Sequence record: OQ626344
From: Escherichia phage S127 BCL3
Strand: one strand, 5' to 3'
DNA: 64,000 nucleotides
Below the pieces are notes generated by a model. It was not told the origin of the DNA, searched no databases, and saw nothing but the letters and a program-made list of their open reading frames with translations. This document shows, in pieces, positions 20,964-22,190 of the stretch (position 1 is the stretch's first letter; each line of letters starts with the position of its first letter). The position numbers and the translations under genes are program-made.

Positions 20964-22190
20964 TTAAAAAGGAATGTCATCATCAAAGGCGTATTGTGCT
21001 GGATTCTGATCCATAGGGTCATCTTCCTCATTATCTACAGGAGGGGCGTCTACAGTGTTTTGCTGTGGATCAGTTTCCTGTTTGGCAGCTTGAGGTTCTT
21101 GATGGTCAGTGGCTCCCGCACCGTTCTTGATCCAATCATACAACGGTTCAGCAAGATTAGTCAAGACATCTTTTGCTTCTGCAGTAATTGCTACTGCAAA
21201 ATCGTCAACTTTCGTTTTCTTGTCAATACGGCGACAAGCGTTCAATACCGCATTACCAACACTGGCACCTACTTCATCTTCAGTTCGGTTGGTGGCTTGA
21301 GCGTACTCTTTCTTAAGCTCAATGGTGACAACGTGTAGTGTTTTAGCCACGTCTAAAGGATTGTCTACCTTAAACCCGCGATCCAGGATGATTTGCAAAG
21401 CATTAATGCTATGCCCTGTTTCTACACCGATAGGATCATAAGAAGATTTACGCTTACCACCAGAGCCTTGAGTGCCGTTCTCTGCCTTGGGTGGGTAGGC
21501 TTTAAAACCGCTGATAATATTCCCGGTGTCTTTGTCAACAATAGCTGCAACACGACCACCTACCACCAGGTCTTTAAGCTGCTCATCAGAGACAACCATA
21601 GCACCTTCGCCAATCTTGTGATCATTGACAGTAACCACGTTACCAACAATCTGAGTCACATCACCATAGATGCGTAAAACGTCCTGATTGGCATTCTGCT
21701 GAGGTTTCTGCTTCTGGCCTTGTGATTGTGTGCCTTGTTGCTGTTTTTGTTGCTGTGGAGCTGCTGGAGCCTCTCCTGCCCCCAACTTAACCATTTTAGC
21801 CAGTGAGCCTTTGTAGTAGGTCTTACCGTTATGCTCATTTGCCTTTAAAGGGATATTTACGATCCATCCTGGCGTTACTGTTTCCCACTTGTCATCAATT
21901 TTAACAGAGACGGAGTCTTGATGACCAGGCTTAAGCAGCTTATCACCCATGCTGATCCAAACTTCTTCACCACCTTGGAGCAGGTTATCAGAGGAGTCCA
22001 GTTCAGAAATCAGTAAAGAGATGGTGTGGCTGGATTCAATTTTCTTACCTTGCCACACAGTGGTTTTAATACCTGTTGTAGGATCAGCACCTTTAATGGG
22101 CTTGATGCTAACACGTTTAATCATACCGTGAGCCAGTAAAACAGTTTCACGCGGATTCATCGGGTTGGCAAATTGTTGAATAACGCTCAT
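20964..22190 (-). CDS. single-stranded DNA-binding protein-like, with bacterial SSB-type C-terminal tip
   Basis: Start moved to Met50 of track ORF (AAGGAGA SD); C-terminus ...FDDDIPF; Gln-rich linker. Confidence 0.5.
   Translation of the reverse strand: MSVIQQFANPMNPRETVLLAHGMIKRVSIKPIKGADPTTGIKTTVWQGKKIESSHTISLLISELDSSDNLLQGGEEVWISMGDKLLKPGHQDSVSVKIDDKWETVTPGWIVNIPLKANEHNGKTYYKGSLAKMVKLGAGEAPAAPQQQKQQQGTQSQGQKQKPQQNANQDVLRIYGDVTQIVGNVVTVNDHKIGEGAMVVSDEQLKDLVVGGRVAAIVDKDTGNIISGFKAYPPKAENGTQGSGGKRKSSYDPIGVETGHSINALQIILDRGFKVDNPLDVAKTLHVVTIELKKEYAQATNRTEDEVGASVGNAVLNACRRIDKKTKVDDFAVAITAEAKDVLTNLAEPLYDWIKNGAGATDHQEPQAAKQETDPQQNTVDAPPVDNEEDDPMDQNPAQYAFDDDIPF

Follow-up and report, generated by a model that had tools for sequence, protein, structure and literature searches.

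An SSB-like protein of Escherichia phage S127 BCL3 with predicted OB-type barrels, a family-specific helical domain and a C-terminal tip identical to that of Escherichia coli SSB

Within a stretch of 64,000 nucleotides from Escherichia phage S127 BCL3 (sequence record OQ626344; the whole stretch is called the window below), a gene at positions 20964-22190 on the minus strand encodes a protein of 408 amino acids that resembles single-stranded DNA-binding proteins (SSBs). This gene probably encodes the phage's own SSB, in which a new OB core is combined with a family-specific helical module and a tip identical to that of the host protein; the tip would recruit SSB-interacting proteins or compete for them, with consequences that the bacterial defence system DRT10 would sense. 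The feature is real and has already been described for the ortholog Bas52_0087 in a 2026 bioRxiv preprint. Since that ortholog is 97% identical, the idea of an earlier note on this DNA, that the protein is a phage SSB or a mimic acting on host SSB-interacting proteins, is already in print as a prediction. Beyond the preprint, the core has no detectable sequence link to known SSB families, and the helical domain, which is without a solved relative, defines a family of ~131 clusters with a conserved SSB-type tip. The helical and tip module is also joined to a gp2.5 core in one lineage, and endonuclease insertions should mask the tip in many natural alleles.

The protein closes with the seven residues FDDDIPF, the same seven as in E. 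coli SSB, as checked against PDB entry 1EQQ, which ends ...SNEPPMDFDDDIPF, so that the earlier recognition of DDDIPF as the bacterial SSB tip was correct. Among all six-frame open reading frames (ORFs) of at least 50 amino acids in the window and in the complete genome of phage EI-SP-GF, an SSB-type tip is found at the C-terminus of this gene only. In homologs with identities down to 29%, P407 and F408 are invariant, whereas the linker before the tip varies freely. A stretch of acidic residues and then exactly [ILVMF]-P-[FWY] closes the sequence in 87 of the 127 representatives of the wider family, and many of the remaining ones stop directly after the helical domain or carry near variants of the tip. 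The variants within the family include ..DDGLDF, ..DDDDVF, and ..DDDLPW, the constants being acidity and a terminal aromatic residue, and members from enterobacterial phages strictly keep I-P-F or V-P-F. Some relatives match the host tip over up to 11 residues (PPMDFDDDIPF); for tips of the types ..DDDLPW and ..DDDLPF, no relatives in cultured phages were found for comparison with the tips of host SSBs. A DDDIPF tip on a phage or plasmid SSB is unsurprising in itself. Shared with E. coli SSB residue for residue, unique among the ORFs, and conserved in the family, the tip described here is no chance match.

Translation of the minus strand at 20964-22190 reads MSVIQQF...NPAQYAFDDDIPF* and confirms the ORF of 408 amino acids ending in AFDDDIPF that had been proposed without a strand; a plus-strand reading of the same interval was rejected, its frame being riddled with stops. 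The start codon is the ATG at 22190. Homologs all begin MSVI or MSVV, with M1 invariant in their alignment, and an annotated ortholog carries a ribosome-binding site at the MSVI start; for these reasons the ATG is taken as the true start, and a longer, TTG-initiated ORF of 457 amino acids was rejected. The protein is 2.3 times as long as E. coli SSB (178 amino acids), in agreement with the original estimate of more than twice the length of a typical SSB. Its organization, with confidence values (pLDDT, the per-residue confidence score of the model) from an AlphaFold2 model built on 25 homologs, is as follows.

20964-22190, minus strand: coding sequence of the SSB-like protein, 408 codons and a TAA stop at 20964-20966, from translation
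21777-22190, minus strand: residues 1-138, enlarged all-beta N-terminal domain with a predicted OB fold, putative core for binding single-stranded DNA (ssDNA); pLDDT 80-92
21681-21776, minus strand: residues 139-170, disordered Gln-rich linker in which 13 of the 32 residues are Gln; pLDDT 25-34
21486-21680, minus strand: residues 171-235, compact second beta-barrel with the OB strand order b1-b2-b3-short helix-b4-b5; pLDDT 80-86
21435-21485, minus strand: residues 236-252, short basic disordered linker ..GGKRKSSYD that ends at D252; pLDDT about 39
21123-21434, minus strand: residues 253-356, four long helices forming a family-specific domain; pLDDT about 90-96
20988-21122, minus strand: residues 357-401, acidic, Pro-rich disordered tail, poorly conserved in sequence; pLDDT 28-43
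20967-20987, minus strand: residues 402-408, FDDDIPF tip, with a free C-terminus in the window allele

The boundaries read from the model itself differ slightly, with disorder at 140-169, 237-250, and 359-408, the second barrel at 171-232, and the four helices at 253-355. Residues 1-138 are basic (isoelectric point 9.1) and contain the conserved aromatic or basic positions W77, W/Y102, K123, and Y126. The Gln-rich linker noticed at the outset is borne out by its composition and by pLDDT values below 50 throughout, and indels in the homolog alignment show that its length differs even among close relatives. The second barrel is restricted to long-form members of the family (Vequintavirinae and relatives) and is missing in most of the family, for instance in the short forms P0056 and P0057 and in the protein of phAPEC8-type phages. 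The four-helix domain, which accounts for a quarter of the protein, was not seen in the earlier note. It carries the conserved motif G-x3-G-H-x2-N ... H ... G-x3-G-N and includes Y351 (codon 21138-21140), and a comparison with solved structures gave no specific relative of it. D252 (codon 21435-21437), at the end of the preceding basic linker, is nearly invariant in the homolog alignment. The net charge of residues 357-408 is -13, and the overall layout of a basic core, flexible linkers, and an acidic tail resembles that of SSBs.

Structure prediction had been suggested as a check for an OB fold, and the model does show OB-type barrels, for which the best solved structural neighbours are SSB, PriB, RPA, and Stn1. 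The predicted fold is thus an OB fold of the ssDNA-binding type, and, as in bacterial SSBs, a disordered linker leads to an acidic DDDIPF tip with a free carboxyl end. When the model was compared with viral models (BFVD) using Foldseek, family members came first, followed by weak matches (E 0.006-0.09) to phage proteins named 'SSB', 'DUF2815', and 'DNA helix destabilizing'. The PHROG families labelled 'SSB' reach relatives of the protein through the tail only; because an alignment confined to the tail is uninformative on the core, they were rejected as evidence about it.

The genomic context points towards replication. The gene lies ~3 kb downstream of genes for a family-A DNA polymerase and a DnaB-type primase/helicase on the same strand, and a PIF1-like helicase is encoded further upstream, again on this strand. 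The match of the polymerase to DNA_pol_A scores 31.8 bits, just under the Pfam cut-off of 34.3, and the DnaB_C helicase domain is found in a protein of 692 amino acids annotated as primase/helicase in the BASEL collection. The combination that characterizes gp2.5-type SSBs, an acidic tail with a terminal aromatic residue together with a family-A polymerase and a gp4-like primase-helicase, is present, and by analogy the organization of the replication module resembles the T7 replisome. When all six-frame ORFs of the window and of the complete Vequintavirus genome EI-SP-GF were compared with E. coli SSB, none resembled it (best E about 2), and the annotation of phage Bas52 lists no SSB in the 50 kb that cover the replication module.

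The DNA of the region is 94-98% identical to that of rV5/FV3-like coliphages (Vequintavirus), the records of which label the gene 'hypothetical protein' throughout, and the protein has a full-length match to PHROG 4477 (E=2.6e-172, positions 1-393 of 393), a family listed under 'unknown function'. A search of 1.84 billion representative proteins with a profile of the helical domain identified 131 clusters. Most of these are short forms of 260-300 amino acids that consist of the N-domain, the helical domain, and the tail; among the full-length matches, the form of 400 amino acids with the extra barrel is a minority, found in Vequintavirinae and related enterobacterial phages. One family member, P0172 (327 amino acids), has a T7 gp2.5-type SSB core (51 bits to PF21265, for which the cut-off is 27) followed by the same four-helix domain and a ...DDDEEIPF tail, and is the one match to PF21265 among 107 members of the wider family. 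P0172 is an instance of domain shuffling between phage SSB classes, and because it joins the helical domain and tip to a gp2.5 core, these form a module that occurs on at least two different cores. The presence of the module on a recognized SSB core also gives independent support for an SSB role.

Two further observations concern members of this family. In P0101 (519 amino acids), eight separate stretches match the helical-domain profile and the C-terminus is basic and unlike the tip; a repeat protein or an artefact of assembly might account for this. Separately, about 20 records named 'Campylobacter phage' (host C. jejuni; for example MG065666.1 and MG065661.1) share 96-97% identity in the SSB-like gene with rV5-like phages of E. 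coli, and their host labels look doubtful.

A functional connection comes from the ortholog in BASEL phage Bas52, which is phage RudolfGeigy. Its gene bas52_0087 (QXV84166.1) was confirmed as syntenic, and the proteins are 97% identical with no gaps (395 of 408 residues identical, 13 substitutions), with syntenic flanking genes. In the preprint, Bas52_0087 is described as predicted to be SSB-like, with two OB folds, a disordered C-terminal region, and the FDDDIPF tip (bioRxiv 10.64898/2026.04.29.721553). Mutants of Bas52 that escape the reverse-transcriptase defence DRT10 (UG17) carry D252V or Y351C in this protein, which is the phage factor required for DRT10 triggering, as defined genetically in Bas52, and supplying the wild-type protein in trans made restriction stronger (bioRxiv 10.64898/2026.04.29.721553). 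The preprint also reports that DRT10 works through the metabolism of ssDNA and complementary DNA (cDNA), that overexpression of the host exonuclease SbcB, a known client of the SSB tip, weakened DRT10, and that the helical region was treated as a 'putative oligomerization interface' (bioRxiv 10.64898/2026.04.29.721553). As the two proteins align at 97% identity without gaps, D252 and Y351 are both present in the window protein at identical positions. In the model, D252 immediately precedes helix 1 and Y351 belongs to the last part of helix 4, and with an up-down-up-down topology the two would lie at the same end of the bundle.

On the reading that we favour, the basic N-terminal OB domain would coat ssDNA produced by phage replication and recombination, assisted in this lineage by the inserted, small second OB-like barrel, and the four-helix domain would mediate self-association or contact with a partner. 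The acidic disordered tail, with FDDDIPF-COOH at its end, would draw host SSB clients to phage ssDNA or compete them away, the candidates being exonuclease I/SbcB, RecQ, PriA, DnaG, and the chi subunit. The family-A polymerase and primase-helicase of the phage may also dock on the tip, by analogy with T7 gp2.5, and DRT10 (UG17) would sense the activity of the protein as a side effect. The ssDNA binding, the oligomerization through the helical domain, and the partners of the tip are what we infer from these comparisons.

The position of the tip at the very end of the gene is affected by mobile elements. Extra residues, 15-16 in number, follow IPF (A-P-[IV]-G-L-Q-Y..., APVGLQYGKSRIHAL) in 15 of 56 homolog clusters, the 56 being those with complete proteins (one further cluster is partial). 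The largest homolog cluster, with 533 member sequences, is among those with the extension, and the tail lengthened by 15 residues has the form ..IPFAPVGLQYGKSRIHAL. In phage VB-EcoM-WM, a cassette of ~640 bp starts precisely after the last Phe codon and runs up to the terminator hairpin that this phage has in common with the window; the cassette encodes an endonuclease, the ATG of which lies inside the Q-Y-G codons of the extension. The endonuclease is also present in phage Bas51 (88% identity), where the junction differs and the stop codon is kept. In the phAPEC8-type relative the extension is followed by an HNH endonuclease that shares the element DGH[LV]NKCKEC. The junction after the terminal Phe codon is a hotspot for the insertion of homing endonucleases, of read-through and stop-keeping types, and the relevant positions are these.

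20917-20948, minus strand of the window: intrinsic terminator hairpin, GCCCTGCCC-GAAA-GGGTGGGGC and then a T-run, 16 nt past the stop codon
20949-20966 of the window: site that corresponds to the hotspot, uninterrupted in the window allele
L009 1168-1791: insertion-hotspot locus of VB-EcoM-WM, directly after the terminal Phe codon
L003 2736-3314: insertion-hotspot locus of Bas51, likewise
L008 6053-7528: insertion-hotspot locus of EI-SP-GF, likewise
L004 3450-3961: insertion-hotspot locus of Mt1B1_P17, likewise

Because the cassette is placed exactly after the Phe codon and the endonuclease start lies inside the extension, the extension is the product of a mobile element, and on the same grounds the 'APIGLQY...' sequence was rejected as a second functional peptide motif. 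The pockets that bind SSB tips contact the terminal Phe and its free carboxylate, and for this reason the extended alleles should mask the tip. Modelling-based support for the carboxylate contact has been reported, in DnaG only.

Several results weigh against the view that the protein is the phage's own SSB. No sequence-based method links the core to any SSB family: PF00436 is absent at E≤1 in the window protein and in all 25 family members, a profile of the N-domain gave 0 matches when searched against all PDB sequences, and comparison of the N-domain using hhalign gave a probability of 0.08% with the OB domain of E. coli SSB (residues 1-116) and of 0.3% with the gp2.5-type core of P0172. The same 25 family members match no Pfam family at E≤0.09, gp32-type included, the PF21265 (gp2.5) profile is unmatched in 25 close members, and the sequence of the window protein has no match among PDB sequences. 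Both escape substitutions map to the helical domain, which D252 borders, and neither of them to the OB core or the tip. According to the preprint, Bas52_0087 alone is neither toxic nor able to activate DRT10 (bioRxiv 10.64898/2026.04.29.721553). Many natural alleles have 15 residues after IPF, and an exposed tip may not be essential. The scan for a second SSB relied on E. coli SSB as its sole probe and on one partial annotation; as a gp32-like or novel SSB would escape it, the description of the protein as the only SSB candidate is provisional. What stands of the SSB-like reading in the earlier note is the part that concerns predicted OB-type barrels, charge layout, host tip, and replication-gene context; the part that does not carry over is membership by sequence, the core falling in no known SSB family.

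Some of these points would suit a tip-bearing decoy, an explanation that we consider unlikely. Many copies of the host tip, possibly on an oligomer, would titrate exonuclease I/SbcB, RecQ, RecJ, or PriA from the host SSB, protecting phage DNA ends or stopping host replication and repair. The absence of sequence homology between the core and SSBs fits such a role, as do the escape mutations in the proposed oligomerization domain, the exact copying of the host tip over as many as 11 residues in relatives, and a DRT10 phenotype that, in the preprint, is tied to the dosage of SbcB. However, a pure decoy would have no need of a basic core or of two predicted OB folds, and in P0172 a true gp2.5-type SSB core carries this helical and tip module. 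A decoy would also leave a phage that has its own polymerase and primase-helicase with no other detected SSB candidate, and the protein expressed alone, according to the preprint, is neither toxic nor a trigger of DRT10.

The tail might instead serve within the phage replisome, which would make host proteins irrelevant, and to this we likewise give a low probability. The protein would still be a phage SSB, with a gp2.5-type acidic tail and terminal Phe that serve mainly to contact the phage's own polymerase and primase-helicase and to fold onto the OB cleft; the likeness to the host tip would stem from a common physical solution or from gene transfer long ago. The terminal Phe of T7 gp2.5 docks on gp5 and gp4, the neighbouring replisome is arranged like that of T7, and P0172 shows a gp2.5 core with the same tail. 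The variation among family tips (..DDGLDF, ..DDDDVF, ..DDDLPW), in which only acidity and the terminal aromatic residue are constant, is also what a phage-internal contact might allow, but identity to the host tip over 7-11 residues in several lineages goes well past an acidic stretch and an aromatic residue. Strict retention of I-P-F or V-P-F in enterobacterial phages and the genetic link to the host SSB client SbcB, as given in the preprint, also argue against it.

That the protein has no role in DNA binding at all, its barrels holding some other ligand (protein, RNA, or sugar) in a regulator or scaffold with an acidic tail, is very improbable: OB and small-barrel folds are functionally promiscuous and the protein lacks sequence homology to any nucleic-acid-binding family, but its structural neighbours are overwhelmingly ssDNA binders, its tip belongs specifically to SSB biology and is kept throughout the family, it is encoded in a replication module, P0172 has the helical domain and tip on a gp2.5 core, and DRT10 acts through ssDNA and cDNA metabolism according to the preprint.

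The preferred reading, a phage SSB with a host-identical tip, can be extended to a wider and rather doubtful proposal. The four-helix domain and acidic tip would be a portable module for client recruitment that is set on unrelated ssDNA-binding cores, namely the new OB core of the window protein and the gp2.5 core of P0172; the end of the bundle with D252, G-x3-G-H-x2-N, and Y351 would be a surface read by immunity such as DRT10; and the endonuclease-extended alleles would be natural tip-masked variants that engage a different set of host SSB clients and thereby alter sensitivity to defences that sense SSB or ssDNA.

Directly upstream of the SSB-like gene is a second, smaller gene.

22190-22555, minus strand: gene for a protein of 121 amino acids, function not assigned, the stop codon of which overlaps the start codon of the SSB-like gene

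Because of this overlap, and because terminator-like hairpins bracket both genes, the two are regarded as one unit. Just upstream of the smaller gene, at 22587-22627 on the minus strand of the window, a terminator-like hairpin overlaps a promoter-like site, TTGTAA-17-TAAAAT, with a TG upstream, which suggests that the two genes form a two-gene transcription unit of their own. The protein of 121 amino acids gave no match in a Pfam search and no similarity to the product of the gene upstream of the phAPEC8-type family member. A role for this translationally coupled gene as a conserved partner was rejected; since it is not kept beside distant family members, it is probably not an obligate partner.

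Other observations were made in the surrounding module. The polymerase is a single ORF of 925 amino acids at 25379-28156 on the minus strand of the window, and the Bas52 version (L005 19749-22802) is annotated as joined from two pieces over 3054 nt; the split therefore points to an intervening sequence, such as an intron, that varies among these phages. A Macro domain (PF01661, E=2.2e-7) is present in a protein of 179 amino acids encoded at 19252-19791 on the minus strand, two genes downstream of the SSB-like one; this protein may be an enzyme that processes ADP-ribose or counters defence. At 22901-23221, also on the minus strand, a protein of 106 amino acids matches DUF7238 (E=3.8e-7).

The wider significance of these proteins relates to bacterial immunity. 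Phage SSBs have been reported as triggers for the Retron-Eco8, AbpAB, Hna, and DARNA defences and are emerging as a common alarm, a part that the ortholog of the window protein plays for DRT10. In this family the exact docking peptide of the host SSB stands on a core whose sequence is unrelated to that of bacterial SSB, which provides a clean system for asking whether copying of the tip borrows or disarms host factors such as exonuclease I, and whether defence senses the coating of ssDNA or competition for the tip. The extended alleles, for example those of VB-EcoM-WM and EI-SP-GF, are useful natural variants of the tip for such studies. In addition, about 350 phage records that now read 'hypothetical protein' could be annotated as putative SSB-like protein.

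Among known systems, the closest is Bas52_0087, which has the same tip, the same D252 and Y351, and syntenic neighbours, and differs from the window protein by the 13 substitutions. More distant is the protein of 310 amino acids from phAPEC8-type phages (Stephanstirmvirinae; QNJ49289.1 from phage Mt1B1_P17), which matches PHROG 4477 at E=4.9e-97 and which a few records name 'single-stranded DNA-binding protein'. Its N-domain, helical domain, and tail (..EEPPMDFDDDIPF) are homologous to those of the window protein, whereas the second barrel is missing from this short form, which continues past IPF with an endonuclease-associated extension of 15 amino acids, APIGLQYGRNFLHCF. The T7 gp2.5-type SSBs (PF21265; the DUF2815/Enc34 ORF6 class) are alike in having an acidic tail that ends in Phe and in working beside a family-A polymerase and gp4-like primase-helicase; they differ in that they have no four-helix domain and their tail is not a copy of the host tip, and the window core is unmatched by PF21265. 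Bacterial SSBs (E. coli Ssb, PF00436, together with their plasmid and prophage derivatives) show no detectable homology in the core, lack the second barrel and the four-helix domain, and are exceeded 2.3-fold in length by the window protein, but share with it a predicted OB core, a disordered low-complexity linker, an acidic tip, and the identity of the last seven residues.
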